Source: a virus (taxonomy: Duplodnaviria > Caudoviricetes). Taken from it: DNA of 44,769 nucleotides. Where the stretch lies: positions 1-44,769 of IMG/VR virus record IMGVR_UViG_3300032224_000682; one strand, given 5' to 3'. Positions 30,302 to 44,769 of this stretch are shown piece after piece. The notes below the pieces were generated by a model. That model searched no databases. It saw only the letters and a program-made list of their open reading frames with translations, and was not told the DNA's origin. The translations under genes and the position numbers were made by a program. Each line of letters opens with the position of its first letter. The first letter of the stretch is position 1.

Positions 30302-30306
30302 CAATT

Positions 30307-30459
30307 ATGAGCGAACAGAAAAATAATCAAGATGGAGATGTTATTTATCTTCAGAAAGAAAACCTAAAGCTAAAAGAAATCTTGCGACAGTGCCTCAAGG
30401 CAAGGCAGATTGCTCATGTTAAACAAATAATTAGAGAAGCGTTCACGCAAGAATATTAA
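30307..30459 (+). CDS. Small hypothetical protein (50 aa)
   Basis: MSEQKNNQDGDVIYLQKENLKLKEILRQ..., fills the gap after the lysin. Confidence 0.55.
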   Translation: MSEQKNNQDGDVIYLQKENLKLKEILRQCLKARQIAHVKQIIREAFTQEY

Positions 30460-30467
30460 AAATCTTT

Positions 30468-30502
30468 TTGACTTATTCACATTGTCTGCTAACTTATTCA
30501 CA
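30468..30502 (+). promoter_or_regulatory. Promoter overlapped by two DnaA-box-like direct repeats
   Basis: TTGACT-16-TAACTT with TGn extension; TTATTCACA at 30473-30481 and 30494-30502. Confidence 0.5.
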
Positions 30503-30504
30503 AC

Positions 30505-30792
30505 ATGAAGCGAATCACCATTAATGTTGATGGAGAGAAGTGGAAAGTTCTTTTCAAAAAACCAACGCAAGACGATTACATTGGTATTGAAGAAGATGAC
30601 ATTGGTCTTTGTGTTATGGAAGAAAGAAAGATATTTGTAACACCCAATCCAGACATGGTTCTTGGCACAGCTATTCACGAAGTTCTTCACGCTGCGTTTC
30701 CTCAAATAAATGAAGATGCTATTATTGCTGGAGAGGAAGCTTTACTTGAATTGCTAAATAAATTTCCAAACGAACTACTACATGAGTCTTAA
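30505..30792 (+). CDS. Small HExxH zincin-like protein
   Basis: GLC..KIFV..TAIHEVLHA..E. Confidence 0.65.
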   Translation: MKRITINVDGEKWKVLFKKPTQDDYIGIEEDDIGLCVMEERKIFVTPNPDMVLGTAIHEVLHAAFPQINEDAIIAGEEALLELLNKFPNELLHES

Positions 30793-31012
30793 GGCTGAAC
30801 AATACAATTCATTGGTTAAAACACAGAAGTTCCTGCGTGATCTTCTATACACGGATACTCGACCAAAGAAAGTATCTGAACTAAAGGAGCGAGCATATCG
30901 TTGTCTTCGTCACTTCCCTCACCTCAAGGAGAACGGTGAACCAATGTTTAGCCAAGATAATTTTCCGTGTCCTAAAATTCAACTCATAGATGAAGATTCA
31001 AACAATAAATAA
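30782..31012 (+). CDS. Hypothetical protein
   Basis: 76 aa, RAYRCLRHFP. Confidence 0.6.
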   Translation: MSLKAEQYNSLVKTQKFLRDLLYTDTRPKKVSELKERAYRCLRHFPHLKENGEPMFSQDNFPCPKIQLIDEDSNNK

Positions 31013-31014
31013 AC

Positions 31015-31761
31015 ATGGCTAACATTACGCACAAATGGAAAAGAGTTTTATCGGTGAGTTGTAGTCATGCAAAGTATTGCGATAAAGAAACATTGGATGC
31101 TGTTCTAAAATTTAAAAGAGACTTTAAACCTCACACAACTATTCATTTAGGTGACTTTGTTGACTTAACCGCCTTGATGTCTGGCGCTAAAGTAGCAAGC
31201 GAAGCGGAGCCATTGATTCCAGATATTGATACTGGGTTGATGCATCTTAAAATGCTTGGGGCAAATGTTGTTCTTTGCGGCAACCATGAAGATCGAGCAT
31301 GGAGATTGCGACATAGCAACAATGCGGTTGTTGCTCATGCCGCCCACAAGATTGTTGAAGCCATTGAAGAGTGCTGCAAGAAGCTCCGTGCGCCACTGCT
31401 TCCGTGGGATGGAGTATTTCAGATGTTTGATCTTGCAGATATTGGATTCCAGCATGGTGTTCTTTTCAACGAGATGGCCGCTAGAGATACAGCAGAGGCA
31501 TTCTGCAATAGCACAAGGCGCAAGGTAGTCTTTGGTCACACGCATAAAATCTCAATTCAATCTGGACGTAACTTACTTGGTGGAACCGGATACAATATCG
31601 GATCGCTTACAAAACGTGCATCTATGGATTATGCTAAAGGCAGGAGGGCTACACTAGCCTGGCAGAATGGCTTCCTTTGGGGTGAGTATTGCGAGGAGCT
31701 TAAACAATCATGCGTACACATTACAAGTCGAGAACAAGGGCAGCAATGGAGACTCCCATGA
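31015..31761 (+). CDS. Calcineurin-like metallophosphoesterase
   Basis: HLGDFVD, GNHE, HG, GHTH motifs; first motif is CSH instead of DxH. Confidence 0.85.
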   Translation: MANITHKWKRVLSVSCSHAKYCDKETLDAVLKFKRDFKPHTTIHLGDFVDLTALMSGAKVASEAEPLIPDIDTGLMHLKMLGANVVLCGNHEDRAWRLRHSNNAVVAHAAHKIVEAIEECCKKLRAPLLPWDGVFQMFDLADIGFQHGVLFNEMAARDTAEAFCNSTRRKVVFGHTHKISIQSGRNLLGGTGYNIGSLTKRASMDYAKGRRATLAWQNGFLWGEYCEELKQSCVHITSREQGQQWRLP

Positions 31762-31997
31762 CACCAAACGATTTTTTAAAAGTCATACAAGATAGTCTCA
31801 ATAAACGATACGAGCCTGTTCCTAATGGTTGGTATTGCACAGATGATTTAATGTCAGCTTGGAACACAGGGAGATCATCCGTTCAAGAGAGAATTAAAGA
31901 AGGAAAAAAACTTGGATGCGTAACTGAAAGAAAGTTCTTTGTTAAAAAAAATGGAGGAAGAATGATCCCATATTACAAGTTCCATCAGAAAAGTTAA
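31758..31997 (+). CDS. Hypothetical (possible HTH) protein
   Basis: 79 aa from the ATGA overlap. Confidence 0.55.
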   Translation: MTPNDFLKVIQDSLNKRYEPVPNGWYCTDDLMSAWNTGRSSVQERIKEGKKLGCVTERKFFVKKNGGRMIPYYKFHQKS

Positions 31998-31999
31998 AG

Positions 32000-32023
32000 G
32001 GGGAGGGAATTTCTCCCCTCCCC
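32000..32023. terminator. Hairpin between convergent operons
   Basis: GGGGAGGG / CCCTCCCC stem. Confidence 0.6.
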
Positions 32024-32069
32024 GCAGTGAACACACAAGCAGGGCAACACAAAGCCCAGCGATGCGAAC

Positions 32070-32474
32070 TTATTTCATTGTTTCCCAATAGTCAATTGGA
32101 TATTTAATTTCTATTTCAGTTTTTTCGTTGTCGAATCCTTTGACTTTTTCTTGTTCGACTTGGAGCTTGATTGTCCATGGGTTGTCTTCAGGTAGGAGTC
32201 CAGAGTGTCGCAAGCCATCGAGTAGATTCTTTGTGGAAGCTGCTGCGTTGTCTGGATCAAGACACCGGACTCGGAACAGAGTGAAGCGGACTTCAATGCG
32301 TCCAACAGCAAGTCCCATGCTAACTTTTTTTCCTTGTATTGGACTGCCCAATGCTGGCGCATGGTTTTGTTTAACGATGGGGTTCTGTATTGGACTGTTA
32401 GTTTTAGTTGCATTGGCTTGTATGAATGATCGTGATGCGTTAGGAAAGGCAAGCAGTAGTTCTTTCTCTGTCAT
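32070..32474 (-). CDS. rusA: RusA-like Holliday junction resolvase
   Basis: LDPDNAAASTKNLLDGLRHSGLLPEDN fits the RusA DxDN..K..D..D pattern. Confidence 0.7.
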   Translation of the reverse strand: MTEKELLLAFPNASRSFIQANATKTNSPIQNPIVKQNHAPALGSPIQGKKVSMGLAVGRIEVRFTLFRVRCLDPDNAAASTKNLLDGLRHSGLLPEDNPWTIKLQVEQEKVKGFDNEKTEIEIKYPIDYWETMK

Positions 32475-32758
32475 AGAGTATATCCCTTTTCTTTAGCCCA
32501 AGCTGGATTGTCATGGCATCTGGTATGACAAATGCGGCAAAGAGATAAAAATGTATCCTTGTTGCACAGATTCTTGCCTCGCTTCGCCATGTGGTGGATG
32601 TCGGTAGCATCAAGACCACAAATCTCACAGTATGGATTTAAAGCAAAGTGTTCCTTCCTTGCTTGCGAGTATTGCTTGAGTTCTTTTGCGTGCCTTGATG
32701 ACACCTTATTCATCGGCTTCTTTGATGTTATTCTACTTCCTCTTTTTAACAGGCTCAT
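32471..32758 (-). CDS. Small HNH endonuclease
   Basis: CEICG..DIHH..LCRICHTRCH. Confidence 0.8.
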   Translation of the reverse strand: MSLLKRGSRITSKKPMNKVSSRHAKELKQYSQARKEHFALNPYCEICGLDATDIHHMAKRGKNLCNKDTFLSLCRICHTRCHDNPAWAKEKGYTL

Positions 32759-32936
32759 AATATGACTCCATACTTGTTAATACTTCAAGGCATTCGCTAT
32801 TCGTGAATGGCAAATCGACGCACTTTGGAAAACTCTTTCCTCGCATATGCATATCACCAAGTTTATTTAGCTTGAAAGGAGAGACGAATACCTTCATATC
32901 CCCATTCTCAAGGCCAATGAACGGGATTAAATCCAT
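32733..32936 (-). CDS. Hypothetical protein
   Basis: 67 aa, tiles the minus-strand operon. Confidence 0.55.
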   Translation of the reverse strand: MDLIPFIGLENGDMKVFVSPFKLNKLGDMHMRGKSFPKCVDLPFTNSECLEVLTSMESYYEPVKKRK

Positions 32937-32937
32937 T

Positions 32938-33201
32938 CTACGAATCCAGTTTTGACATTATCTTTTTTAACCATTGCTCATTTTTTACCTCTTGTTTTTT
33001 CCTTGGCTTGCTTGGTAGCCTAATTCTTTTAAGCCTGTAAACATCCGGTATTGGACTTTTCTTTACAAGAATTTCGTGAGTTATTGTCTTATGTCTCTTG
33101 GAACAATACCTAATTCTTCTGATAAAACAAACATTGTCTTCAGTTGTTAGTGTTCTTGTATCACTTACATCTGTATCAAGTTTACATTTACTGCACTTCA
33201 T
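32938..33201 (-). CDS. NrdR-N-terminal-like Zn-ribbon protein
   Basis: MKCSKC..TDVSDTR..RRIRYC..H..THE; no ATP-cone. Confidence 0.65.
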   Translation of the reverse strand: MKCSKCKLDTDVSDTRTLTTEDNVCFIRRIRYCSKRHKTITHEILVKKSPIPDVYRLKRIRLPSKPRKKQEVKNEQWLKKIMSKLDS

Positions 33202-33643
33202 TTACGAATTTCTTTGCCCCCTCCATTAGAAACATTTTACTTACAGCTTCATCAACTGTGTATGCGGGGTATTCAATTTGATTTATAAGAGACTTAATTA
33301 ATTCAATTGCTTTGTATATTTTATGAACGATCTCGTCATCCGAAACAATGCCGTTATCCCTTGGATGTTTTTTACCGCAAAGACGAGCCTCAACGATTTC
33401 GTATTCGATCTTCCAATGCGCTGCATCTTCTAAAACATCCTCATGTGCTTTTTCCAATCTTTTGATTGCCTTCATAGCTAAATCTCGTTGGTCTTGCAGA
33501 TTTATTATTTCGGAACGAAGAGAATCAATTTCACATTGCGCCATTAAACTGTGGTTAAATTCCAATTTATTTGGCGCATCTTCTGGTCTAGAGATATATC
33601 GAACAGATACATCTCCTACATATTCTGGCATCACATCTTCCAT
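33188..33643 (-). CDS. Hypothetical coiled-coil protein
   Basis: 151 aa, tiles the operon. Confidence 0.55.
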   Translation of the reverse strand: MEDVMPEYVGDVSVRYISRPEDAPNKLEFNHSLMAQCEIDSLRSEIINLQDQRDLAMKAIKRLEKAHEDVLEDAAHWKIEYEIVEARLCGKKHPRDNGIVSDDEIVHKIYKAIELIKSLINQIEYPAYTVDEAVSKMFLMEGAKKFVNEVQ

Positions 33644-33644
33644 A

Positions 33645-34043
33645 TTAATCTTTCTTCAATAGTTCCTCTACGATTTGTTCAGCTACGTCATGCAGCGATG
33701 GGTATGCGAGCATATTGAATGACTTTCCATGCTTTTCAATAAATGCTTTCCAATCTCTGTGTTCAGCTTTAGTGAGCTTTGTTTGGTATGGTCTTGCCTC
33801 TCCAGCCTTACGGATGATTCCCATTATGCTGTCAGCCTTGTTGTGCATGGCAGCTTGGATTTCAGCTCGATCTGGATAGACACACTGCCGGATGCTGGTG
33901 CAGCCTGGTGCTATCTTAACGAGCCAGTAGCCTTCATCAAGGCCATGGTATGCGTTTGGATCATTGACTTGGATATATCGCTTCCCAACTTTGCGGTAGA
34001 GTATATCTGACTCTACTTGCGCTATGCGTGTTTGTGCGTTCAT
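33645..34043 (-). CDS. Hypothetical protein
   Basis: Start set at MNAQTR (34043), 9 nt after a promoter -10. Confidence 0.6.
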   Translation of the reverse strand: MNAQTRIAQVESDILYRKVGKRYIQVNDPNAYHGLDEGYWLVKIAPGCTSIRQCVYPDRAEIQAAMHNKADSIMGIIRKAGEARPYQTKLTKAEHRDWKAFIEKHGKSFNMLAYPSLHDVAEQIVEELLKKD

Positions 34044-34093
34044 GCAAAAAACATCTTGCACTAAATGTAGTGGCGTGTCAATATCTGGTTTCC
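34044..34093. promoter_or_regulatory. Overlapping symmetric divergent promoters with inner palindrome
   Basis: Plus TTGCAC-17-CAATAT-9-ATG; minus TTGACA-17-CAAGAT-9-ATG; CACTA-aatg-TAGTG in the shared spacer. Confidence 0.6.
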
Positions 34094-34267
34094 ATGAAAC
34101 ACACATTCATTCACCTTGGCTGCGAGGTTAAGATCGCAGGTAACGATGTCACAATCTATCGGCAAGATGGAGGTATTGATAAGATCAAATTAAAGTTGAT
34201 CCATGATCAAGACACAGCAGAAGAGTTCGTCAAGGACTACATCACGCTCAGTATTGTTAAACAATAA
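34094..34267 (+). CDS. Small hypothetical protein
   Basis: 57 aa MKHTFIHLG... Confidence 0.55.
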   Translation: MKHTFIHLGCEVKIAGNDVTIYRQDGGIDKIKLKLIHDQDTAEEFVKDYITLSIVKQ

Positions 34268-34282
34268 ACCAGAAAAACACTA

Positions 34283-35716
34283 ATGTGGATACTACCATCA
34301 CAACTCTTGAAATGTGCGCCGGATATGGAGGCATTGGACTTGGAATCAAAAACATCTTTGGCGAGCGATTGCGAACCATTGCATATTGTGAGCTTGAGGG
34401 GTTCGCTCAAGCCAATCTCATCAGTAAGATGGAAAAAGGACTCTTGGATGCAGCACCTATATGGAGCGATCTTAAAACCTTTCCATACGAATCGTTTCAC
34501 AGACTGGTGGACATCCTCATTGCGGGATACCCATGTCAGCCATTTAGCGCAGCAGGAAAGCGAGCAGGTAAAGAAGACCCAAGACATCTTTGGCCTTGGA
34601 TCGCAGACGGAATTCGACTTCTTCAACCAAGAATGTGCTTCTTTGAAAACGTCGAAGGACACATCTCGTTGGGACTCTCAACAGTCATCAGTGATCTGGA
34701 AGAACTGGGTTATAAAAGTTCGTTCGGAATATTCAGTGCGAGTGAAGTTGGCGCAGTCCACCAAAGGAAAAGAGTGTTTATCATGGCCCACCGCAACGGC
34801 GAGGGATTTTGCAGGGAAAAGTGGTTCTGGCAGGCAGGGGCGCAAGGGGCATCCAGCGGATACTCTACCGAATGCGGTAGCTCAATGGCCGACACCAACA
34901 GCAGGAGAATGTCTGGATCAAGGAACGAATTGGGAAACGCTGGCGAGGCTGGACAAGGGTGGTCGAATACTTCGCAGGATGGCATCATTGGAAATGTCTG
35001 GCCATCACGCCCCGGTCAACCACAATACGCATGGGAACCGCCAAGGGTCGTGGCTAACTCCAAACACGATGGACTCACTTCCTGTCAGATCGGAGGAAGC
35101 ACTTGCGAGACAATACCAGAAAAACAGATTTGGGAGGACAACTCACTCAACATTGAGAGAGCAAGTTGCATTGCCACCACCAAGTCAGATGGCATGGGCA
35201 ACTCCTCGCAGTTGTTCTGCTATGGCAGCAACAATAACAGAGGAATCAGTGAACAAGGAGAACAGATTCCCGAATCTAGAAACTCAAGTTGGGAGGCAGC
35301 AATGGGCAACGCCAAGAGCAGGGAAAACAACGGACGAGAATCCAGAGACATGGCTGAAGCGTCAAGCCAACGGGGATGTTGCGACGATGCCACTAACGGC
35401 GCAAGTGAAAGTGAAACAATGGGCAACGCCACGAATAGGCGGCGAGGAAAAAGCGGAGACGAGACTTGCGAGGGGGCGGGAAATTGGACTTCACGGACAA
35501 GTGGGAGCAATGACGAACTCAGCAAAACTCAACAGCCAATGGGTTACTCAACTCATGGGGCTGAATCTCGGTTGGGTATCTCCGAGCTGTCCGGCCTCAG
35601 TGATTCTGAATTGGCCGAAATTCGTGAGTGGATGGTGCGCTGCGACAACAGAACAGATGAACTGCGATTGCTCGGCAATGGAGTTGTCCCGGCAACAGCA
35701 ACCAGAGCTTTTCTGA
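34283..35716 (+). CDS. Overlapping-frame methyltransferase partner (beta-like) with motif IX and six WxTP-type repeats
   Basis: 477 open codons; WPTAT, WPTPT, WLTPN and three WATPR; KLNSQWVTQLMGLNLGW resembles motif IX. Confidence 0.75.
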   Translation: MWILPSQLLKCAPDMEALDLESKTSLASDCEPLHIVSLRGSLKPISSVRWKKDSWMQHLYGAILKPFHTNRFTDWWTSSLRDTHVSHLAQQESEQVKKTQDIFGLGSQTEFDFFNQECASLKTSKDTSRWDSQQSSVIWKNWVIKVRSEYSVRVKLAQSTKGKECLSWPTATARDFAGKSGSGRQGRKGHPADTLPNAVAQWPTPTAGECLDQGTNWETLARLDKGGRILRRMASLEMSGHHAPVNHNTHGNRQGSWLTPNTMDSLPVRSEEALARQYQKNRFGRTTHSTLREQVALPPPSQMAWATPRSCSAMAATITEESVNKENRFPNLETQVGRQQWATPRAGKTTDENPETWLKRQANGDVATMPLTAQVKVKQWATPRIGGEEKAETRLARGREIGLHGQVGAMTNSAKLNSQWVTQLMGLNLGWVSPSCPASVILNWPKFVSGWCAATTEQMNCDCSAMELSRQQQPELF

Positions 35717-35739
35717 CACTATTGGAGAAACTAAAATGA
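34285..35739 (+). CDS. C5 cytosine DNA methyltransferase, catalytic (alpha-like) polypeptide lacking motif IX
   Basis: Motif I CAGYGG, IV GYPCQPFS, VI FENV, VIII QRKRVFI, X LLGNGVVP; GTG start. Confidence 0.85.
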   Translation: MDTTITTLEMCAGYGGIGLGIKNIFGERLRTIAYCELEGFAQANLISKMEKGLLDAAPIWSDLKTFPYESFHRLVDILIAGYPCQPFSAAGKRAGKEDPRHLWPWIADGIRLLQPRMCFFENVEGHISLGLSTVISDLEELGYKSSFGIFSASEVGAVHQRKRVFIMAHRNGEGFCREKWFWQAGAQGASSGYSTECGSSMADTNSRRMSGSRNELGNAGEAGQGWSNTSQDGIIGNVWPSRPGQPQYAWEPPRVVANSKHDGLTSCQIGGSTCETIPEKQIWEDNSLNIERASCIATTKSDGMGNSSQLFCYGSNNNRGISEQGEQIPESRNSSWEAAMGNAKSRENNGRESRDMAEASSQRGCCDDATNGASESETMGNATNRRRGKSGDETCEGAGNWTSRTSGSNDELSKTQQPMGYSTHGAESRLGISELSGLSDSELAEIREWMVRCDNRTDELRLLGNGVVPATATRAFLTLLEKLK

Positions 35740-35915
35740 GCAAAGAACAGAAAGTATGGCTTGCACTTCAGTCTGCAAAGACAGATATTATTCTTGCAAT
35801 TGCTGACTACAAGAAACCAGATCGTGCTGCTTGTAAGGATTGGATAAACCAAGCGACATCAAGGCTGATGGAAGCTTACGCTTTACTGCGTGAGGACGGA
35901 GGATACGAGCTTTAA
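35736..35915 (+). CDS. Small hypothetical protein (59 aa, absent from ORF track)
   Basis: MSKEQKVWLALQSAK..., ATGA overlap with the methyltransferase. Confidence 0.55.
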   Translation: MSKEQKVWLALQSAKTDIILAIADYKKPDRAACKDWINQATSRLMEAYALLREDGGYEL

Positions 35916-35926
35916 CTAAAAATACT

Positions 35927-36565
35927 ATGATTGTAATGCCATCAAACAATAGCGGCATCCAAGTTGGATACATGGCAGGTAAATATCAAGGCAGGATTGG
36001 TTGGTTGTTGTCTCCAGATGGATGGATTAAGCCGCCTTCTTGGATGCCATATGCCATAGACAATGGAGCGTATCCAGCTTGGGCAAACAACGTGCCGTGG
36101 AATGAAGATAAATTCTTAAATCATTTAGAAAAAACAAAAACAGCACCAAAAAAACCATTGTGGGTTGTTGTTCCAGATGTTGTAACTGATAAAGAAGCTA
36201 CTATTGCTAAATGGATTCCTTGGGCTAGACAAATTCGTGAAATATTATTTAATGTTCCTCTTGCTTTTGCGGTGCAGGATGGAATGACAAAGTCAGATGT
36301 TCCATCAGATGCAGAAGTTATATTTGTTGGAGGATCAACAGAATGGAAATGGAAGAACCTTTACGAATGGACTTCAAACTTTAAGCGAGTTCACGTTGGC
36401 AGGGTTAACTCTGAAAGACTTCTTTGGATGGCACACGAAGCTGGAGCAGAATCTTGTGACGGCACAGGATGGGTTCGTGGAGGAGAAGAACGATTAGAGG
36501 AACTACACAGGTATCTTCAACAATCGACAGGTGGAGATAATAGACCGCAATTACAATTTTTATGA
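35927..36565 (+). CDS. TGT-fold DpdA-like 7-deazaguanine DNA transglycosylase
   Basis: Collinear TGT/DpdA-like motifs DNGAY, VPDVV, VQDG, FVGG, VHVG, SCDGTGW; adjacent to QueF-like and QueD genes. Confidence 0.7.
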   Translation: MIVMPSNNSGIQVGYMAGKYQGRIGWLLSPDGWIKPPSWMPYAIDNGAYPAWANNVPWNEDKFLNHLEKTKTAPKKPLWVVVPDVVTDKEATIAKWIPWARQIREILFNVPLAFAVQDGMTKSDVPSDAEVIFVGGSTEWKWKNLYEWTSNFKRVHVGRVNSERLLWMAHEAGAESCDGTGWVRGGEERLEELHRYLQQSTGGDNRPQLQFL

Positions 36566-36804
36566 ACATATACGAAATTACGCATCGGGCAGAATGCCCA
36601 AATGGAAAATTGATTGATACATACAAAATCAAGATAACAAGTCACAATACAATTATCGTTGAGGAACTAATAAATATATTGGAAAATTCTCCAAAACAAA
36701 TCTATCAAGAAGACCTAGCAGATTATCTTCGCGCAAAACTTGGGGCAATGGTAGAGATTGTCGGCTGGCATTACGGAATAAAAATAATCTGCATCAGGGA
36801 ATGA
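36562..36804 (+). CDS. QueF-like (QueF-L) T-fold protein
   Basis: CPNGKLIDTY..IIVEEL..IYQEDLA..GWHYGIKI parallels the QueF-L CP..D..IEE..HEELA pattern. Confidence 0.6.
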   Translation: MNIYEITHRAECPNGKLIDTYKIKITSHNTIIVEELINILENSPKQIYQEDLADYLRAKLGAMVEIVGWHYGIKIICIRE

Positions 36805-37148
36805 AAACCACAATATTCAAAGAGTTTAAATTTAGTGCAGCACACAATCTAACAGTGGATGGTCATACATGCTCAAAACTGCATGGACATAATTACAAAG
36901 TAAGAATAGAATTGTCTGGTAAAATGGATGCAAGTGGAATGATTTTAGATTTCTCAGAAATCAAAAAAAGAATACAGCCGATAATAGATAAATTAGACCA
37001 CTCGTATTTGAACGAAATTATCATACTGCCAACTACATCCGAGAATATTGCTTCATGGATTTTTACTCAATCAAACAATCAGTTAGGATGTGTTGCAAAG
37101 GTAACGCTATGGGAAACTGAATCATGTGGAGCAATAGTAACATTTTGA
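36801..37148 (+). CDS. queD: 6-carboxytetrahydropterin synthase
   Basis: FSAAH, CSKLHGHNY, LDHSYLN, TSENIA, LWET. Confidence 0.9.
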   Translation: MKTTIFKEFKFSAAHNLTVDGHTCSKLHGHNYKVRIELSGKMDASGMILDFSEIKKRIQPIIDKLDHSYLNEIIILPTTSENIASWIFTQSNNQLGCVAKVTLWETESCGAIVTF

Positions 37149-37165
37149 GATGCAATAACGTGGCA

Positions 37166-37239
37166 ATGTGGCGGGTTATACCTTGGCGGGTCGAATCTGG
37201 TCAACAAGTAGCCATCTCCGTAACCACATAAAACGGAGG
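37166..37239. ncRNA. Candidate pseudoknotted RNA
   Basis: ATGTGG/CCACAT crosses CTCCGT/ACGGAG, with an intervening hairpin 37174-37213. Confidence 0.35.
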
Positions 37240-37263
37240 CTCTCAATTATTGTTAAACAATAC

Positions 37264-37296
37264 TTGAACACTACACATGGTTAGTGTAGTGTTCAA
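37264..37296 (+). promoter_or_regulatory. Promoter within a perfect 13-bp inverted repeat (operator candidate)
   Basis: TTGAACACTACAC-7 nt-GTGTAGTGTTCAA; TTGAAC-17-TAGTGT. Confidence 0.6.
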
Positions 37297-37299
37297 TCT

Positions 37300-37430
37300 G
37301 CTGTAGCAATACAGCCATTCGCGTGAGAACGAATGCAACGCAAGATTAAATTGAAACTATATATATCGACTACCTCTCGTAGAGTATTCTCACCCGTCAT
37401 TTCAACGGTCTTGCGCTACGAGGGGAGTCG
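37300..37430 (+). ncRNA. Candidate multi-pseudoknot leader of the replication gene
   Basis: GNRA hairpin, second hairpin, long third stem, plus long-range pairs GTGAGAA/TTCTCAC, CGCAAGA/TCTTGCG, TTGAAA/TTTCAA. Confidence 0.55.
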
Positions 37431-37442
37431 GCCCCATTTATT

Positions 37443-38258
37443 ATGAACGAATCAAAAAAGGAATTTAGAGGCGTGTGGATTCGCGCAAGCCTATGGAAAA
37501 GACAAGACCTAACATGGTTTGAGAAGTGCCTTATTGCTGAGATCGATTGCTTTGCTGGAAACTGTTTTGCAAGTAACGCATATCTTGCTGAGATGATGGG
37601 AACAACTGAGTCTCGTTTAGCGAATGCTCTGAGCAAATTGAGGGGTATGGGATTGATTATTGATGGAAGTTTTAACGGAAGAGTTAGACAGATTATGGTA
37701 TCAAATGAAGTATCATCAGACCCAATAGCAGGGTTCACGCCAGAGTTAAAGCAGGGTTCACCTATATGTGAAGGCAGGATTAACACCAGTGTGAACATAG
37801 ATACTACTATAGAACAAAGGATAGAACATACTCCTTCGGAGTTTGAAAAATTCTATTCTGCATACCCTCGTAAAATCTCAAAACCTAATGCTGAGAAGGC
37901 GTGGAAGAAACAGAAGTGTGTCTTATCAGAAGTCATGCCAGCACTTCAGAAACAAATGAAGCTATGGAACGATCCTCAGTTCATTCCACATCCTGCCACA
38001 TGGTTGAACGGAAGACGTTGGGAAGATGATCTAACTACTAAATCAATACCACCACAGCAGAGCGCATACAAAAACAATTCTAACGCAAACCTCGCGCAAA
38101 AGAAGCGCAACTGGTATGACATATGTGAAGAGCGTGGAGAACGCGAAACATTCAAAACATGGGTTGCAGAAAACAGACCGGAGGAATGGTGTGATTATCT
38201 TCCATCAATGGATGTCCGGTGGTGGGTGGAATTTTGTGATAGATCAATTGAGTTTTAG
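37443..38258 (+). CDS. Phage replication initiator protein
   Basis: N-terminal wHTH (CFASNAYLAEM), FEKFYSAYPRK..AEKAW, FIPHPATWLNGRRWED. Confidence 0.8.
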   Translation: MNESKKEFRGVWIRASLWKRQDLTWFEKCLIAEIDCFAGNCFASNAYLAEMMGTTESRLANALSKLRGMGLIIDGSFNGRVRQIMVSNEVSSDPIAGFTPELKQGSPICEGRINTSVNIDTTIEQRIEHTPSEFEKFYSAYPRKISKPNAEKAWKKQKCVLSEVMPALQKQMKLWNDPQFIPHPATWLNGRRWEDDLTTKSIPPQQSAYKNNSNANLAQKKRNWYDICEERGERETFKTWVAENRPEEWCDYLPSMDVRWWVEFCDRSIEF

Positions 38259-38280
38259 TAGATACAATCAAATCGAACAC

Positions 38281-38388
38281 ATGAAACGAATCAAGCTTCT
38301 CTGGCTTTACATCAAGCGCGAATACTACATCGCGCAGCTGGTGTGGAACGAAATCAAGATTGCAATCATCAAGTCACTCTCAAAATGA
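38281..38388 (+). CDS. Small hypothetical protein (35 aa)
   Basis: MKRIKLLWLY..., ACAC-rich sequence upstream. Confidence 0.4.
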   Translation: MKRIKLLWLYIKREYYIAQLVWNEIKIAIIKSLSK

Positions 38389-38507
38389 AAGAGTTCATTT
38401 TAATGACAGCAATTGCCATGCTGTTTATTTTCACAATTTCCGTTTGGAAGCGGGCAACCCAATCGGACTTCACAATCTGCCCACTCTGCAATCAACACAC
38501 ACAATAA
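38385..38507 (+). CDS. Small membrane protein with CPLC (40 aa)
   Basis: MKEFILMTAIAMLFIFTISVW...ICPLCNQ; ATGA overlap. Confidence 0.45.
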   Translation: MKEFILMTAIAMLFIFTISVWKRATQSDFTICPLCNQHTQ

Positions 38508-38514
38508 ACACACA

Positions 38515-39279
38515 ATGAAAGAATCAGGACACTATTACGATCTCACAGGCAAAGCAGTCTTTGAGGTTCCAAACAAATCAAAAGGTGGAATGCGCCCAAC
38601 GACACTCAAGGATTGTCGAACATTGGGCTTGCTCCCATCGGTTACTACCATATTCAAGTGCCTCGCAGCACCGGAACTTGACCGCTGGAAACAACAACAG
38701 GTTCTCATGGCAAGCCTCACGCTGCCTCGCAATCCAGATGAGACAGATGAAGCTTATTGCTCGCGCATCATGGAGGACGCATTCAAGCAGGTTGAGGATG
38801 CAGCTGATCTTGGAACAAGTATCCACAAGGCGCTTGAGAATCACTTCCAAGGACTACCATACGACCCAATCATGGAAGACTATGTTTCTCCAGTGAAGAA
38901 GTGGGTTGATGCAAACCGAATCAAGTTCCTTCAACATGAACTTCGCTTAGTTAACCCAGATGTTGGTTATGCTGGAACAACAGATGCACTCATTGAGAAA
39001 GATGGTGTGCTGTATGTGCTGGACTACAAGAGCCGAAAAACTAAACCGGAATATGAAGTCAAGCCATGGAGTAAGGAACCCATGCAGATTGCAGCTTATG
39101 CTCACGTTGCAAAGGCTACCCGTGGAGTGAATCTTTACATCTCAACAACAGAGCCTGGGCGTATTGGTGAAGCGTGGTATGATGAGAATACGCTAACAGA
39201 AAATTACAATGCGTTTACACATGTCTGCAAGTATTGGCAGTTTGCTAACAACTATGTTCCTCCGAGCGGATCATTCTGA
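38515..39279 (+). CDS. PD-(D/E)XK exonuclease (RecB/Cas4-like fold)
   Basis: PSVTT, GTSIH, YAGTTD, LDYKS, QIAAY; ATG 38515. Confidence 0.85.
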   Translation: MKESGHYYDLTGKAVFEVPNKSKGGMRPTTLKDCRTLGLLPSVTTIFKCLAAPELDRWKQQQVLMASLTLPRNPDETDEAYCSRIMEDAFKQVEDAADLGTSIHKALENHFQGLPYDPIMEDYVSPVKKWVDANRIKFLQHELRLVNPDVGYAGTTDALIEKDGVLYVLDYKSRKTKPEYEVKPWSKEPMQIAAYAHVAKATRGVNLYISTTEPGRIGEAWYDENTLTENYNAFTHVCKYWQFANNYVPPSGSF

Positions 39280-39299
39280 AAAAAATAAAAAACTTTTTA

Positions 39300-39327
39300 T
39301 TGACCATAGATAAAAACCAAGTAGAAT
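39300..39327 (+). promoter_or_regulatory. Sigma70-like promoter giving a near-leaderless transcript
   Basis: TTGACC-16-TAGAAT-9-ATG(39337). Confidence 0.6.
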
Positions 39328-39336
39328 AAAAACCGC

Positions 39337-40059
39337 ATGAACACACAATCAGATAACATTGCAGACCTCGCGGCTTCGCTTGCCAAAGCGCAGTCGGAAA
39401 TGGGAGCGGTTCACAAGGATCAAGACAATCCTTACTTCCGCTCAAAATTTGCTGGACTCTCAACAGTATGGGAAGCAGTAAAGCCAGCACTCACAAAGAA
39501 CGGACTTAGCATCGTGCAGATGCCAGGTTCTGATGAGCGTGGATACTTTGTCCAAACACAGTTGTTACATAGCAGTGGACAATGGATTCGCAGCACAACT
39601 TACATGAAGCCCGCCAAAGAAGACCCGCAGGGAATTGGCAGTTTAATTTCATACGCTCGTCGATATGCTTTGCAGGCAATGGTAATGGCATGCCCTGACG
39701 ACGATGATGGCGAAGCCGCAATGGGTCGCACCGCTCCACAAAAGCCAGCGGAAGCGTCTAAACCAGCGCAGAAGGCAGAGACACCCAAGGCAAAGGCAGT
39801 CAAACCTACAGAACCAACAGTGGAGTCTGTAGATAAGCCAAAGTTCAATGGTGAATCTCATCAGCAACTCTTTCAGAAGTTGATGGCAGAAGGAATCACG
39901 CAAGATGATTTCATGTCCTCGCTTCGACACGCTGGAACCATTCCAGAGAATGCAAAAGATTTCTTCTTGATGAAGGAAGCAACCGCTCAAAAATTCTTGG
40001 GCGAATTAACAACAACAATCGGTGTAGTCCGTGAATGGATCGCACTCTACAAAAAATAA
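39337..40059 (+). CDS. erf: ERF-family single-strand annealing protein
   Basis: NPYFRSKFA, HSSGQW, QGIGSLISYARRYAL, DDDG. Confidence 0.9.
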   Translation: MNTQSDNIADLAASLAKAQSEMGAVHKDQDNPYFRSKFAGLSTVWEAVKPALTKNGLSIVQMPGSDERGYFVQTQLLHSSGQWIRSTTYMKPAKEDPQGIGSLISYARRYALQAMVMACPDDDDGEAAMGRTAPQKPAEASKPAQKAETPKAKAVKPTEPTVESVDKPKFNGESHQQLFQKLMAEGITQDDFMSSLRHAGTIPENAKDFFLMKEATAQKFLGELTTTIGVVREWIALYKK

Positions 40060-40068
40060 TACAACAAT

Positions 40069-40296
40069 ATGTCACAGCAATTTGACAACACAAACTCCGG
40101 CGTTCTCTTCACTAACACAAAGAAGAACGAGAAACATCCTGACTTCAAGGGTCAACTTAATGTTGAGGGAAAAGAGTGGGAGATCGCGGCATGGAATCGC
40201 ACCAGCAAAGCTGGAAAACAGTTCCTTTCGCTGAAGATTTCGGTTCCTTATGTTAAGGACACATCGAAAGACACTGATCTGAATCAGGATTTCTAA
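40069..40296 (+). CDS. Small putative ssDNA-binding protein (DUF736-like)
   Basis: KHPDFKG..IAAW..GKQFLSL, acidic tail ending in F. Confidence 0.65.
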   Translation: MSQQFDNTNSGVLFTNTKKNEKHPDFKGQLNVEGKEWEIAAWNRTSKAGKQFLSLKISVPYVKDTSKDTDLNQDF

Positions 40297-40313
40297 TTTG
40301 GTATGCATGGCGC

Positions 40314-40347
40314 GGGGAGGCAGGGTTTGGTGGTTACCTGCCTCCCC
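40314..40347 (+). terminator. GC-rich hairpin
   Basis: GGGGAGGCAGG / CCTGCCTCCCC 11-bp stem, weak U tail. Confidence 0.5.
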
Positions 40348-40361
40348 CAAACCTTTAAAAA

Positions 40362-40508
40362 ATGAAAAAGTATCCAGTTTTAGGTGTTATCCTTCCTGAC
40401 AAAGTTAAAAAGGAACTCAAAAAACAATCTGCTAAGAATGGCAGATCAATGTCAACTGAGGCTGCAAGAATCATTGCTAAAGAACTTGGCATGGAATCTG
40501 CTGAATAA
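40362..40508 (+). CDS. Arc-like ribbon-helix-helix DNA-binding protein (absent from ORF track)
   Basis: MKKYPVLGVILPDKVKKELKKQSAKNGRSMSTEAARIIAKELGMESAE matches the Arc NGRS..E signature. Confidence 0.75.
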   Translation: MKKYPVLGVILPDKVKKELKKQSAKNGRSMSTEAARIIAKELGMESAE

Positions 40509-40516
40509 TTAGTTGC

Positions 40517-41596
40517 ATGAACACACTAAAGGGTCAGTTCCAAACCCCAAAAGGAACAATCACACGCCAGCAATTGGCAGAAACATTGGCTGGAAAGTAT
40601 AAAACAGACATCAAAACATCACTAAAGCTCATCTCAATCTGTGAGCGAGAGCTTGAGCTTGAGGAAGATGCGCCAAATAATCACTTTGCATTGCTGGAAG
40701 AAGCCTGTGCCATCATCCAGTTTGATCGAGGTGAGATTGATGCGAAAGAATTGAAGATGACTATTGTTAAACAAGAATTAGAAGAGGGAACTGAGGAGTC
40801 AATCCTTGAAGCCGCACTCAATACACGCTTGGACAATGGCTATAGCAAACTCTCAGAACGCTATGATTTTGGTGAGTTTATGACGCAGTTCAAGCCAAAG
40901 GAAGGCATCATTCCCACACCGGAAGATTATGCTGCTGCCATTGGCATGGGTGTTGATATGTCATCCAAAGGAATGTGGCTTGCAGGAGATGGTATCCGTT
41001 ATCTGTATGCTACTGGACACGAGAATGTTCTGACTCAAATTGCATCGAGTCTCAAAATGTCGTATAGCCATGTAAGCAACTGGCATCGTGCAGCTGCAAG
41101 GATTCCAGCACACCTTCGTAATGAGATTAGCCCAACTGTTGCCGTTGAAATTGCTACCGCAAAGTTCTCAGACGATGAGCAGGAGAACAACCGCAAGATG
41201 TTGCAACTCGTTGATCAAGCGAGGAAAGAGAAGTGGTCTTGCCAAGAGGCTCGTTCTCATGTTCGTGCAGAGAAGGGTGGATCAATGGAGAAGCCAGTCA
41301 AGCTATCGTGGGTTCAAGAGTTTGGTGGAAACGAAGACCTTCTTGTTATTGCTTGCCAATGGTCAATCGGTGGTGGCGCTGGTGAACTTGATCAGTTTCA
41401 TTTCATTGTTAAACTGGCGAAAATTTTCCATCGTCTGTCTGAAAATGCACAGGGATCAATTCGTCTGATCGTCAATGACCGCATTAAAGAACACGCATCG
41501 CTTGAAGAAAGCGGCAAGGAAGGATTGTTTGATGAAGATACGATTCAAGATTTGCTGAAGATTTCAATGAATACATTTGGAGATGGCGCGAAATGA
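40517..41596 (+). CDS. Hypothetical DNA-binding protein (LmbU-like HTH segment)
   Basis: WLAGD..QIASSLKMSYSHVSNWHRAAARIP..R. Confidence 0.5.
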   Translation: MNTLKGQFQTPKGTITRQQLAETLAGKYKTDIKTSLKLISICERELELEEDAPNNHFALLEEACAIIQFDRGEIDAKELKMTIVKQELEEGTEESILEAALNTRLDNGYSKLSERYDFGEFMTQFKPKEGIIPTPEDYAAAIGMGVDMSSKGMWLAGDGIRYLYATGHENVLTQIASSLKMSYSHVSNWHRAAARIPAHLRNEISPTVAVEIATAKFSDDEQENNRKMLQLVDQARKEKWSCQEARSHVRAEKGGSMEKPVKLSWVQEFGGNEDLLVIACQWSIGGGAGELDQFHFIVKLAKIFHRLSENAQGSIRLIVNDRIKEHASLEESGKEGLFDEDTIQDLLKISMNTFGDGAK

Positions 41597-41778
41597 GCGG
41601 AGAACTTCCATTTATCGGTGGTTTTTTCGTAGGATGCGCTCTTACTGCACTTTTAATGCTAATATTTACAATTGACCCACTTGAAAAAGAAGCAATTAAG
41701 AGAGGATACGCAGAAATGAAACTTAAAACACCATACGACACAGAAGCGGTATTTACTTGGAAGGAGGGCGCGAAATGA
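41593..41778 (+). CDS. Small membrane protein
   Basis: N-terminal TM; ATGA-coupled. Confidence 0.55.
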   Translation: MSGELPFIGGFFVGCALTALLMLIFTIDPLEKEAIKRGYAEMKLKTPYDTEAVFTWKEGAK

Positions 41779-42056
41779 GTGACACACCAGAGACGGATGC
41801 GGCAACGCATGACGTGAGTGATTATGGCCCACCTGTGCCTTGTTCTTGGGGAGATTGGGTAGCCGCTGATTACGCTCGCAAGCTGGAGCGCGAGCGCGAC
41901 GAGGCGCGGGAGGCTGCTGATAACCTAGTTGAGTATGCTCGCCAATCCCTTGTGGAACTAGAAAAATGGGGAAAAGGTTATGGTCGCTACGAACGAGAGA
42001 TGAATCAAATCCGAGTGGACATTGCGCGAGTGAACTGGCGGGAGGGCGCGAAATGA
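41775..42056 (+). CDS. Hypothetical protein (MSDTPETD... type)
   Basis: ARKLERERDEAR coiled coil; GC-richer than neighbours. Confidence 0.6.
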   Translation: MSDTPETDAATHDVSDYGPPVPCSWGDWVAADYARKLERERDEAREAADNLVEYARQSLVELEKWGKGYGRYEREMNQIRVDIARVNWREGAK

Positions 42057-42295
42057 ATGAGTATCCAAGGTGCGAACAGTTAGGCATTGTCATCATTCAA
42101 GAGCCAGTAGCGCATATTAAGCGATCTAATTTGCATGAGTGTTTGCTCAAAGATGGGATTGATCTAGAAGAATACTCTGAACTATACGGAATCCAGACGC
42201 AGTATGTAGAAGGACCATATCCTTGGGATGTTGAAGCAGTGCTTGAACGTATGATGTCAGGCAAGCTCACCGGAACGCAGTTTATAATGGATTAA
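42053..42295 (+). CDS. Hypothetical protein
   Basis: 80 aa MNEYPRC... Confidence 0.55.
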   Translation: MNEYPRCEQLGIVIIQEPVAHIKRSNLHECLLKDGIDLEEYSELYGIQTQYVEGPYPWDVEAVLERMMSGKLTGTQFIMD

Positions 42296-42296
42296 T

Positions 42297-42911
42297 ATGC
42301 ACTACGCGCTAAATGCTCCCGTTCCACAACACATCTACGGATATGTAGAGAAAAAAATCTTGTTTGGACTTGATGATGTTGAAGGCTACGAGCCTTGCGT
42401 AATCATTGGAGTTACGTCAATACCTGGGCGAGCGTTACACTTCTCTATTCTTTGCGAAAGCGGAGCGCAGTGGGCAAGGATTCCGATTCATTGCGTATTC
42501 CACAGGATACCATGCTGCGACGAGAAGCCCTTGTATGAGGTTTTTGACCTTCAAATGTGGGATTGTATGGGTTTGGAGTTTAGTGTTGTTCAATACACGT
42601 ATTTCAGAGAGATGTCCTGCACCTTCAGAAACAGAGAAGGCAAGAATGTTCCGGCTCAGTATTGGTTCACCTTGGATCACACCGATAATGGGTTCAGCCT
42701 ATCCCCAACACAGCACAAATGTTTTCACTTACTGAAATGTAATGATGGGTCAGGTCAAATCGCAGCAATGCCTAATAATCGGATTGTGTGGCATGATCCA
42801 TCGTTCGTTAGGCATGGTGATGTTCCTAAGTATAAGGTGATGGCAGATGTAACCTGGCACTGCGAACAACAAGAACTTGACAATCCGCACGATACGGCAT
42901 TTACTGAATGA
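42297..42911 (+). CDS. Conserved phage hypothetical protein
   Basis: SIPGRAL, LQMWDC, HKCFH, AAMPNNRI. Confidence 0.65.
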   Translation: MHYALNAPVPQHIYGYVEKKILFGLDDVEGYEPCVIIGVTSIPGRALHFSILCESGAQWARIPIHCVFHRIPCCDEKPLYEVFDLQMWDCMGLEFSVVQYTYFREMSCTFRNREGKNVPAQYWFTLDHTDNGFSLSPTQHKCFHLLKCNDGSGQIAAMPNNRIVWHDPSFVRHGDVPKYKVMADVTWHCEQQELDNPHDTAFTE

Positions 42912-42912
42912 T

Positions 42913-43410
42913 ATGGCAAGAGCAAAGGGACAAGACTTAACACCTAAAGAACGAGAGTTCTGCAAGTTTCTTGCAACAGGAGTTCCAGTGTATCGAGCGT
43001 TTTTTCAAGCTGGATACAAGGCAACGAACAACAAGTATGCCAGTATGAAGGGGTCTGCTATCTCTTCCCGCCCTAATTGCGCGAAATATATTTCTGAGTT
43101 GAAGGACGCTAATTGGTTATCGAATGTGATGAGTATTGCTGAGAAGCGTTCACTCATGGCTGAGATCGCTAGAGCTAAACCATCAGACATCACCGAGGAT
43201 TCGCCAGCTTGCTCTATATCGATAGACGGCGAAGGAAACAGGTCAATACAAGGGCCAAAGGTTTCGGACAAGCTGAAGGCAATTGAACTCGATGCCAGGA
43301 TATCCGGTGAGTTATCGCAGGAAAATGATTCAAGGACACAAATTGCAATCCAACTGATCAATGATCGGCTGGAGATTCCATCGCCTGAAGTGAAGGCAAT
43401 CGAAGAGTAA
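42913..43410 (+). CDS. Terminase small subunit-like protein
   Basis: LTPKEREFC..AFFQAGY HTH and DKLKAIEL; start MARAKG. Confidence 0.65.
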   Translation: MARAKGQDLTPKEREFCKFLATGVPVYRAFFQAGYKATNNKYASMKGSAISSRPNCAKYISELKDANWLSNVMSIAEKRSLMAEIARAKPSDITEDSPACSISIDGEGNRSIQGPKVSDKLKAIELDARISGELSQENDSRTQIAIQLINDRLEIPSPEVKAIEE

Positions 43411-43411
43411 C

Positions 43412-43449
43412 AAAAAACCCGCTCCGGTTAAAGAGCGGGTATTTTGTTT
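43412..43449. terminator. Bidirectional intrinsic terminator
   Basis: A run, ACCCGCTC/GAGCGGGT stem, T-rich tail between convergent genes. Confidence 0.8.
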
Positions 43450-43469
43450 AGCTTGTGTTTAGCTTGTGT

Positions 43470-43757
43470 TTATATTCCACTGTAGACCGCAAGGACTCTA
43501 GCGTGAGCTGATGGGCGCGTTGCCTTGCGATATTCCAAGCGTTTTATCTTCTTAGCTTTTAGAGCAGCAATAAATCTTCCTCCCATAGCGTTTGGATGCG
43601 GCGGTTCTGGAATCCATGCGCGAACATCTTCAGCGGTGAACTCAGCTCCGTTACGAGCAAGCCACCCTATAATATAATCGCAGTCATTTCTCCAGTCTTC
43701 TGGAGTGTTGGAATCTACTTTTGAGATACCGTAATCACGTAGTTGTTCTCCAGTCAT
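43470..43757 (-). CDS. Hypothetical protein
   Basis: 95 aa, FTAEDVR..PPHPNAMG..SAHAR. Confidence 0.65.
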   Translation of the reverse strand: MTGEQLRDYGISKVDSNTPEDWRNDCDYIIGWLARNGAEFTAEDVRAWIPEPPHPNAMGGRFIAALKAKKIKRLEYRKATRPSAHARVLAVYSGI

Positions 43758-43764
43758 ATTATTT

Positions 43765-43977
43765 TTAACAAGTTGGTTGGCTTAGTGGCGTGTCGCAGAT
43801 GTGTGTTTGTTTTGCTATGCGCGTGAATGATTCGTCTGCTTTTCTCTTGAACGATAATACCTTGCCACTATTGGAAAGAATACAGCAGTTTTGTGTAATT
43901 TTTTCCATGGCATAAATCTCAGCCATTGCGACATTCTCAAATGTGATGTTTTGTGATGCGGTAGATAGAGTAACCAT
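43765..43977 (-). CDS. Hypothetical protein
   Basis: 70 aa from MVTLST. Confidence 0.45.
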   Translation of the reverse strand: MVTLSTASQNITFENVAMAEIYAMEKITQNCCILSNSGKVLSFKRKADESFTRIAKQTHICDTPLSQPTC

Positions 43978-44165
43978 TAGATACCCCTCCTTGCGCGATT
44001 GAGAGCTGCGCGGCATTGCATCATCAAGAGCGTGTCACCGTCACCATAAGCATCAAGAACAGCCTCTAATGCTTCCATCATTTCTCTCCTTGAGGACTCG
44101 CCGGATAGTGGTGAGTCCTTGAATCTGAATAGTGGTTTCTGTTTATGTAGTGTGTGTGTTCTCAT
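43977..44165 (-). CDS. Hypothetical protein
   Basis: 62 aa, EMMEALE..RAALNRARRG. Confidence 0.55.
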   Translation of the reverse strand: MRTHTLHKQKPLFRFKDSPLSGESSRREMMEALEAVLDAYGDGDTLLMMQCRAALNRARRGI

Positions 44166-44299
44166 TTCTTGTTTTTCTTCTGTGGTTTAGGATAATACGA
44201 TGACTTGTATTTAGGTTCTTGGTTATTGCAGTTGCGGATGATTCTGATGTATGCCTCTGGATCGAGGCAAGTGTGTTGTGTTTTTTCTATTGCGCTCAT
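44162..44299 (-). CDS. Small hypothetical protein (45 aa)
   Basis: MSAIEKTQHTCLDPEAY..., ATGA overlap with the next gene. Confidence 0.45.
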   Translation of the reverse strand: MSAIEKTQHTCLDPEAYIRIIRNCNNQEPKYKSSYYPKPQKKNKK

Positions 44300-44301
44300 A
44301 A

Positions 44302-44526
44302 TCAATCGCAGTAACACGTTGCATTACACATATAAACGTATAAGTCACCGACCTTTTCTTCCTGGCATGAGAAGTCTTGTCCGTCCATACCGTGAACCTG
44401 ACCGATTGACCTTGCGCCGGATTTTGTAATCTGACGTGTCGTTTTTACAACGAACTCATACCATTCCGTGTTACCAGAAGATGATACTGATGTTCTTTCA
44501 CCATCGAATTGAATTGTGTTATTCAT
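44302..44526 (-). CDS. Hypothetical protein
   Basis: 74 aa from MNNTIQ, preceded by AAACACAAAACACAC. Confidence 0.55.
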   Translation of the reverse strand: MNNTIQFDGERTSVSSSGNTEWYEFVVKTTRQITKSGARSIGQVHGMDGQDFSCQEEKVGDLYVYMCNATCYCD

Positions 44527-44545
44527 GTGTGTTTTGTGTTTGTTT

Positions 44546-44562
44546 CTGTCAGAATCTGACAG
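44546..44562. promoter_or_regulatory. Perfect 17-bp palindrome (operator candidate)
   Basis: CTGTCAGA-A-TCTGACAG about 20 nt upstream of the minus-strand gene block. Confidence 0.45.
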
Positions 44563-44769
44563 TTTCCGGCATGATTGCCAGACTTCTACGCACTCCATGG
44601 AATGCGTAGAGTGTCTGACTACTTCCAGACCTTTCCAATACGCTCTAATTCGCGCCACATTGGTTTAAATTTTGCGCCCTTCAGACATGCCAGAATTAGG
44701 CTCGGGGGTAATTACCGGCTGGCCATCCACCAGGGCGGGCATAATTTCGGCGTCGTCGGCGGCCAGCTC

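Follow-up and report, generated by a model that had tools for sequence, protein, structure and literature searches.

What is encoded directly upstream of the replication initiator of this phage, and what does it do for the gene that follows? The stretch of DNA analysed here, called the window throughout, is a 44.8-kb fragment (44,769 nucleotides) of a virus record. A predicted 143-nt leader RNA is located at 37300-37442 on its plus strand, in a region that follows a QueD-like gene, whose end is at 37148, and precedes the initiator gene (37443-38258). The initiator matches PHROG 270 'replication initiation protein' (E=1e-35) and, weakly and below cut-off, Pfam HTH_36, and it is followed downstream by exonuclease, ERF and SSB genes. 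A preliminary description of this locus had proposed hairpins with three long-range pairings into the loop of one long stem, which it interpreted as a so far undescribed RNA switch acting on translation of the initiator, with the pseudoknots in the rep leaders of IncI/IncB plasmids as known examples of such control. Each of the pairings it listed was found at its position in the window, and comparison with homologous loci led to the following set of elements:

37264-37296, plus strand: predicted promoter-like site (-35 at 37264-69, 17-nt spacer, -10 at 37287-92)
37300-05/37310-15, plus strand: P1, a 6-bp hairpin with a GCAA (GNRA) loop, at the predicted RNA start
37316-21/37330-35, plus strand: P2, a hairpin whose loop gives the 5' strand of helix A
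37323-29/37387-93, plus strand: helix A, a 7-bp pseudoknot from the P2 loop to the P3 loop
37339-45/37409-15, plus strand: helix B, a 7-bp long-range helix that abuts P4 and P3
37347-51, plus strand: TAAAT, unpaired and invariant, just 5' of the 5' strand of helix C
37352-56/37400-04, plus strand: helix C, 5 bp in the window, which targets the P4 loop
37357-37366, plus strand: A-rich linker, with A37363 and A37365 at the foot of P3
37367-82/37416-30, plus strand: P3, a 15-16-bp stem with a 33-nt loop holding the targets of A, B and C
37394-97/37405-08, plus strand: P4, a 4-bp hairpin with a 7-nt loop, between the target strands of A and B
37431-37442, plus strand: 12-nt spacer to the start codon, with CC (37432-33) and then A/U-rich sequence without a Shine-Dalgarno motif
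37443-38258, plus strand: replication initiator, 271 aa with an HTH N-terminus, directly 3' of the leader

All three long-range targets lie, as had been described, inside the loop of P3, and 12 nt separate the end of P3 from the ATG at 37443. Two of the pairings needed revision. The P2 loop does pair downstream through 37323-29, the loop itself being 8 nt long (37322-29) with 7 nt paired. The pairing given as 37351-56 with 37400-05 also exists, as 5 bp and not 6, because A37405, needed for a sixth pair, is also claimed by P4; its target is the loop of P4, and it is weaker in the homologs. P4, which had been missed, appears inside the P3 loop upon plain folding of the window. Comparison of the sequences shows the strand 37387-37430 paired over its whole length, by A, P4, B and P3 in turn; the P3 loop is clamped on both of its arms by 7-bp helices coming from the 5' half, and the invariant TAAAT together with helix C folds back onto the P4 loop. 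In principle, all of these helices could coexist at once. The linker measures 14-22 nt with helix C counted in, which, on a geometric estimate, is little for P4, B and P3 to stack in a straight line, and the fold would therefore have to bend or breathe. With three mutually crossing long-range helices plus the loop pairing, it is unusually knotted for 143 nt.

Such an arrangement had been judged unlikely to arise by chance, and a post-hoc test agrees: when 20,000 dinucleotide shuffles of 37300-66 were compared with the real P3 loop, two non-overlapping 7-bp matches occurred in 74, and two 7-bp matches with an additional 6-bp match in only 7. Moreover, in a folding comparison with 200 shuffled sequences, the leader region was more stable than 199 (z = -3.0).

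Homologous leaders were collected by several routes. The initiator protein fetched 11 homologous loci as a first set, and pattern scans of viral and metagenome contigs, together with a profile search over 227 loci, led to 39 distinct copies including the window. The first pattern scan produced 61 matches, of which 41 were attributable to chance and dropped, and copies with identical cores were counted once. Loci that do not depend on any pattern were obtained through the neighbouring exonuclease (53 loci) and ERF (80 loci) proteins, and were searched with a covariance model built from the nested helices P1-P4 only. This model matched 27 of the 52 exonuclease loci searched, the others being cut off before the initiator, having another gene order or carrying a different leader; among the 69 ERF loci searched it matched 14, with no match at all in the 45 most distant. 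The final set contains 54 distinct sequences from uncultured phages, window included (29 effective sequences at 90% identity), and provides natural variants ready for structural work and for the design of compensatory mutations. A pattern scan of GTDB gave five matches, none with the leader architecture on inspection, and no relative of the leader was found in collections of cultured phages and plasmids, where a blastn search against 72,556 plasmids was without match. Five relatives are complete genomes of 67.8-69.0 kb, each with a single copy of the leader. None of the five carries a tyrosine integrase, a resolvase or ParA, so these relatives look lytic.

Comparing the homologs and checking for covariation, as the preliminary description had suggested, shows helices A and B covarying beyond a tree-based null across the 54 copies. 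In an untouched MAFFT alignment of the 39 copies, 100% of helix A cells are paired, with two-sided changes at five of its seven pairs; six pairs of helix B are formed in 98.7% of cells, and P3 is paired in 97.2%, with two-sided changes in 13 of 15 pairs. Sliding the partners in this alignment cuts pairing from 90.5% to 37-47%. In the anchored alignment of 54 copies, helix A is paired in every copy at six positions and in 53 at the seventh. Helix B is paired in 53-54 copies at six positions and in 40 at the outermost one, two positions being broken in a single copy, L010. Five pairs of P2 are formed in 54/54 and the sixth in 35/35, the bottom four pairs of P3 in 54/54, and the first three pairs of P4 in 54/54, with swaps in divergent copies.

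The covariation null, built for this analysis in place of R-scape, consisted of 200 alignments simulated with per-column rates on a tree derived from the same alignment, the registers of P3 having been picked by folding and that of helix B among three offsets. Of 9,316 column pairs, 16 reached E<=0.05; all but one of these belong to the proposed helices (six in P3, three in B, and two each in A, P1 and P2). Two pairs of helix A and three of helix B reached E<=0.005, and six in the upper stem of P3 reached E<0.005, while no pair of P4 or of the P3 foot was individually significant at E<=0.05 in this test of 54 copies. Helix C varies in length, with 2 bp in eight copies, 3 bp in 29, 4 bp in seven and 5 bp in ten, and a compensatory swap is seen in three divergent copies (L295, L332 and L334).

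The unpaired residues that are kept fall in two places. At the A/P4/B junction these are TAAAT and two positions of the P4 loop (a C and a T). TAAAT is invariant in 54/54 copies, which is partly by construction since several search patterns contained it; it is kept also in the copies reached through neighbouring proteins. At the foot of P3 these are the linker A and the CC that follows the stem: A37363 is kept in 54/54, A37365 in 53/54 and the CC in 54/54. An all-against-all covariation scan returned no significant partner for the CC or for the linker adenines. The GNRA loop of P1 is found in a fixed register in 51 of the 54 copies; P1 is missing in L309 and shortened in L141 and L214, and thus appears to be dispensable. 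Furthermore, the GNRA loops and the G-U pairs indicate that the plus-strand RNA is what selection acts on. A DNA-level origin element is disfavoured by the GNRA loops and by G-U pairs, which are strand-specific. Taken with the covariation, these features bear out the view that the leader is a conserved RNA structure.

Where this RNA begins is suggested by the promoter-like site, absent from the preliminary description. In the window it has only 7 of 12 matches to the consensus, below the listing threshold of a consensus scan. In 51 of the 54 copies, a site made of a TTG-hexamer, a spacer of 16-18 nt and TA..T ends 6-9 nt before P1, and its sequence differs among clades despite the constant distance. 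The RNA therefore probably begins at P1, and is likely to form the whole 5' leader of the replication operon. The promoter of the window is also a 13-bp perfect inverted repeat, a possible operator, in which -35, 17-nt spacer and -10 can be read in either orientation. In 12 of the 54 copies, the sense promoter shares sequence with a reverse site. An A/T-rich palindrome at 37243-67 adjoins the promoter and recurs elsewhere in related genomes, and the region containing both (37243-37296) might serve as operator for the Arc-like protein encoded at 40362-40508.

An Rfam match would have made the leader a known RNA, and the scan that had been proposed for this purpose returned no match at gathering threshold when the whole window was compared with 4,227 Rfam 15 families. 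A search of 37100-37500 up to E=10 gave five weak matches, all far below cut-off. Full-text searches of the literature on this theme turned up no account of the leader RNA. Fremin et al. 2023 (PMC10690425) report DNAVirus_4859, a 106-nt automated candidate with 40 aquatic phage sequences which, from what the article gives, lies within 25 bp of HTH_36 genes, a setting like that of our leader. This candidate has one covarying pair and is listed with Phage_rep_O and DUF4373 genes, to which none of the 20 downstream proteins tested from the leader family matched. The two could overlap. We conclude that the leader represents a well-supported new RNA family with an unusually complex fold.

The position of the fold relative to the first gene bears directly on its function. 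From the last fixed pair of P3 to the first AUG there are 10-18 nt (mean 12.5, sd 1.5), and 11-13 nt in 43 of the 54 copies. This spacing is kept across about ten dissimilar first proteins: initiators that differ in their N-terminal domain, small HTH-like proteins with an initiator behind them, and the products of HNH or endonuclease VII genes. The initiators behind the leader differ among clades in both halves, leaving no candidate trans factor, and the sequence available downstream in L141 and L309 contains no recognisable initiator. None of the 54 leaders has a Shine-Dalgarno 4-mer at -14 to -4; in the relative G002, 7 of 47 long ORFs do, and the start regions there are 69% A+T. The constant distance between the fold and the first start codon suggests translation as the target. 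In L028, L202, L214, L141 and L309 the gene immediately after the leader, at the customary spacing, is of the HNH or endonuclease VII type, and the site resembles an insertion hotspot. L214 is the sole copy with 18-nt spacing, and has the strongest anti-Shine-Dalgarno pairing among the copies.

The reading that we prefer, with about even confidence, is that the leader is a compact ribosome-proximal element that sets the translation of the first gene. The geometry of the AUG favours an action at the level of initiation, near the mRNA exit of the ribosome. The fold would form as a compact domain with the foot of P3 stopping about 12 nt before the AUG, roughly where the mRNA would leave a ribosome holding that AUG in its P site, and it would take the place of the Shine-Dalgarno helix on the 30S platform. 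In doing so it would tie up the -27 to -13 region, which is open and A/U-rich in the other genes of the phage, and the output of the initiator would then be governed by the way in which the fold is dealt with by the ribosome (S1) or by a bound factor. The region occupied by P3 is open elsewhere in the phage, and for this reason the leader more likely limits initiation than boosts it.

Precedent exists for pseudoknots that dock on the 30S platform and are melted by S1 (PMC3858243). The E. coli rpsO leader pseudoknot, described there as the S15 operator, is likewise a pseudoknotted leader beside a start site, and offers a model for platform docking and S1-dependent handling. It contains a Shine-Dalgarno sequence and its pseudoknot includes coding sequence, whereas the phage leader has no Shine-Dalgarno motif, its fold ends 12 nt before the AUG, and no protein is known to bind it. 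The T4 gene 32 leader, through which the SSB represses its own synthesis (PMC10690425), is another phage mRNA pseudoknot upstream of the unstructured start region of a replication gene. In that case a simple H-type knot is bound by its own product, while the leader described here precedes exchanged genes and has a more complex fold.

Several observations weigh against control of translation. A spacing of 11-13 nt would be expected of any 5' structure that merely clears the ribosome, and P3 forms with or without helices A-C, leaving no evident thermodynamic link to the accessibility of the start site. A simple hairpin would be enough to dampen initiation, so that the invariant core is unexplained. 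Finally, the absence of integrase, resolvase and ParA from the five complete relatives implies no plasmid-like need for copy-number control. Indeed, the invariant core (TAAAT, the C and T of the P4 loop, the linker A and the CC of the tail) is unaccounted for by every reading considered here. Should translation of the initiator be controlled, the leader would represent RNA-only control of the onset of replication in apparently lytic phages, whose genes are mostly without Shine-Dalgarno motifs, and it would become directly testable whether bacterial ribosomes in nature rely on RNA structure to place start sites.

A more far-reaching version, which we regard as unlikely, is an IRES-like domain that would recruit and position the 30S subunit by its shape alone, with no Shine-Dalgarno pairing, and would set in the P site whichever AUG follows at about 12 nt; the invariant junction might in addition sense a ligand that gates phage DNA replication.

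Ligand sensing could also be the primary role, the A/P4/B junction with its TAAAT binding a small molecule, such as a nucleotide signal, or an ion and relaying this to the foot of P3 in the manner of a riboswitch. The clustering of invariant unpaired residues at one junction, around which the helices are free to vary, would fit such a sensor, as would the 5' leader position, and by the geometric estimate the linker of 14-22 nt is short enough that docking could strain the P3 foot. An alternative hairpin over the spacer, in which the G-run of P3 would pair with the CC of the tail, is possible in every copy and would offer a second state; yet it lies uphill by a median of 7.7 kcal/mol (range 3.7-12.2), with only 3 of 54 copies within 5, and it does not covary. 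Native tails have no advantage in pairing over swapped ones (25/48, p=0.54), and the hairpin finds no support as a co-evolving switch partner. With no Rfam riboswitch match and no metabolic gene context suggesting a ligand, a sensor appears decidedly unlikely.

We consider improbable an action on transcription, in which the nascent leader would bind RNA polymerase and allow read-through of terminators in the long replication operon. It is suggested by the put elements of phage HK022, whose antitermination through RNA polymerase is factor-independent: putL lies just downstream of PL and consists of two stem-loops (PMC9378689), and our leader, like putL/putR, would be a cis-acting RNA right behind an early-type phage promoter, with two abutting hairpins, at the head of a long operon. 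The put sequences are about 70 nt long, made of two stem-loops, present in two copies, one behind each of the early promoters, and not tied to a start codon, whereas the leader has 143 nt, twice that length, and is present once per genome in the five complete genomes. P1 is dispensable, as judged from L309, the fixed spacing to the AUG would have no reason, and terminator-like sites in 30000-44769 are at chance level (14 found against 12.6 expected).

Protection of the message is quite improbable as the main role. Here the knotted fold would block 5'-end-dependent mRNA decay, sitting as near the AUG as the ribosome permits; the leader does fill the whole predicted 5' leader from +1, the P3 loop is braced in a ring-like manner, and the spacing from P3 to the AUG is never below 10 nt. 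A 5' hairpin is normally enough to stabilise an mRNA against this decay. Moreover, this role would account neither for the invariant CC at the 3' foot, with the linker adenines there, nor for how narrow the spacing is at its upper end.

A new self-cleaving ribozyme was considered because the topology recalls that of pistol, and we hold it to be very improbable. P2, A, B and P4 correspond to P1, the pseudoknot, P2 and P3 of pistol, and the two RNAs have in common the connectivity of the P2/A/B/P4 helices, with a pseudoknot from the P1 loop to the P2/P3 junction in pistol numbering (PMC6154101). Pistol ribozymes are common beside phage genes, and the leader has a compact invariant core. The leader differs from pistol by its additional P1, P3 and helix C, and lacks the catalytic residues (purine 32, G33, G40, C41, G42) and the two-nucleotide cleavage junction. 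Indeed, the positions matching G40-C41-G42 are covarying Watson-Crick pairs of P4, the P4-B junction has zero nucleotides instead of two, no conserved purine pair precedes the A target, and no Rfam ribozyme matches. The topology of HDV-like ribozymes resembles B/P3/P4; the sequence leaves no segment between B' and P3' for the catalytic strand, and this candidate was rejected. A terminator or attenuator was also discarded, at least five T within the 8 nt after P3 being found in only 3 of 54 copies.

The IncI/IncB-type switch, the comparison drawn in the preliminary description, has a scarcely credible chance of being right. In this scheme the start region becomes accessible upon termination of a leader peptide, translation of the replication gene is activated by a pseudoknot, and an antisense RNA blocks it, as in the rep leaders of IncI-alpha (ColIb-P9 repZ), IncB (pMU720 repBA) and IncL/M plasmids (PMC4705826, PMC10724649, 10.1101/2025.01.23.634512). 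Our leader resembles these in being a structured leader before a replication initiator, with a hairpin loop that pairs far downstream near the start (helix A, 54/54), and the window has a 37-codon ORF (37333-37446, plus strand) whose stop overlaps the initiator ATG. The Rfam family of these leaders, RF01089 (PK-repBA), gives a weak match below threshold (19.1 bits, the cut-off being 45; E=0.066), which falls mostly on the promoter palindrome. In contrast to the plasmid leaders, which come from low-copy plasmids and combine one pseudoknot with a leader peptide, an antisense RNA and a weak Shine-Dalgarno and start codon that an inhibitory stem masks, the phage leader comes from apparently lytic phages and has three crossing long-range pairings with a long enclosing stem, an unconserved peptide, no Shine-Dalgarno motif and an open AUG. 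An ATG/GTG/TTG ORF running from upstream of P3 to the start region is present in only 13 of 54 copies, with differing starts and frames, so that a conserved leader peptide was rejected, and the distance from P3 to the AUG occurs in all three frames. A Shine-Dalgarno 4-mer occurs in 0/54, the AUG is unmasked with P3 ending 10-18 nt before it, and helix A has a core that hardly varies, unlike a specificity code. Reverse promoter-like sites were detected in 11 of 54 copies at no shared place, with a strict consensus threshold that misses even the sense promoter of the window. The leader peptide and the masked start region that help define such a two-state switch are absent or unconserved, the alternative hairpin neither covaries nor is near in energy, and control of this type appears largely refuted at the level of the family. 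The 37-codon ORF itself recurs in the same form only in L001.

Related phages have a shorter sibling leader before the initiator, seen in three near-identical copies only (L302 at 3690-3811, L304 and L307) and unmatched by the covariance model. It comprises a promoter, a small hairpin, a further hairpin with loop residues that pair with those in the loop of a long stem, and an inner hairpin, and ends in a terminator-like run of eight T followed by the ATG. Together, the leader family and this simpler sibling suggest a wider class of initiator leaders that is absent from Rfam.

Other features of the locus were noted. The initiators of the window and of L001-L011 are mosaic, with a common C-terminal domain and several unrelated N-terminal domains. 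Inside the window initiator gene, a 12-bp direct repeat (37727-37738 and 37750-37761) could represent iterons of an intragenic origin. At the C5 methyltransferase gene (34283-35739 of the window), two long overlapping frames of 477 and 484 aa are found on the plus strand. The gene cluster at 35927-37148 (plus strand), whose last gene is QueD-like, is an insertion in the window relative to close relatives, and the QueD-ending cluster stands elsewhere within the operon in L153, L111 and L288. Lastly, a second conserved structured RNA is encoded at 37150-37245 on the plus strand, at the end of the upstream operon, and has no Rfam match. It consists of a closing stem, a variable hairpin and an H-type pseudoknot (37168-72/37225-29 crossing 37217-21/37235-39), the latter with compensatory changes among 11 distinct copies, all from a single subclade. 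This RNA is separable from the leader, being missing in L009 and about 200 bp distant in L005.
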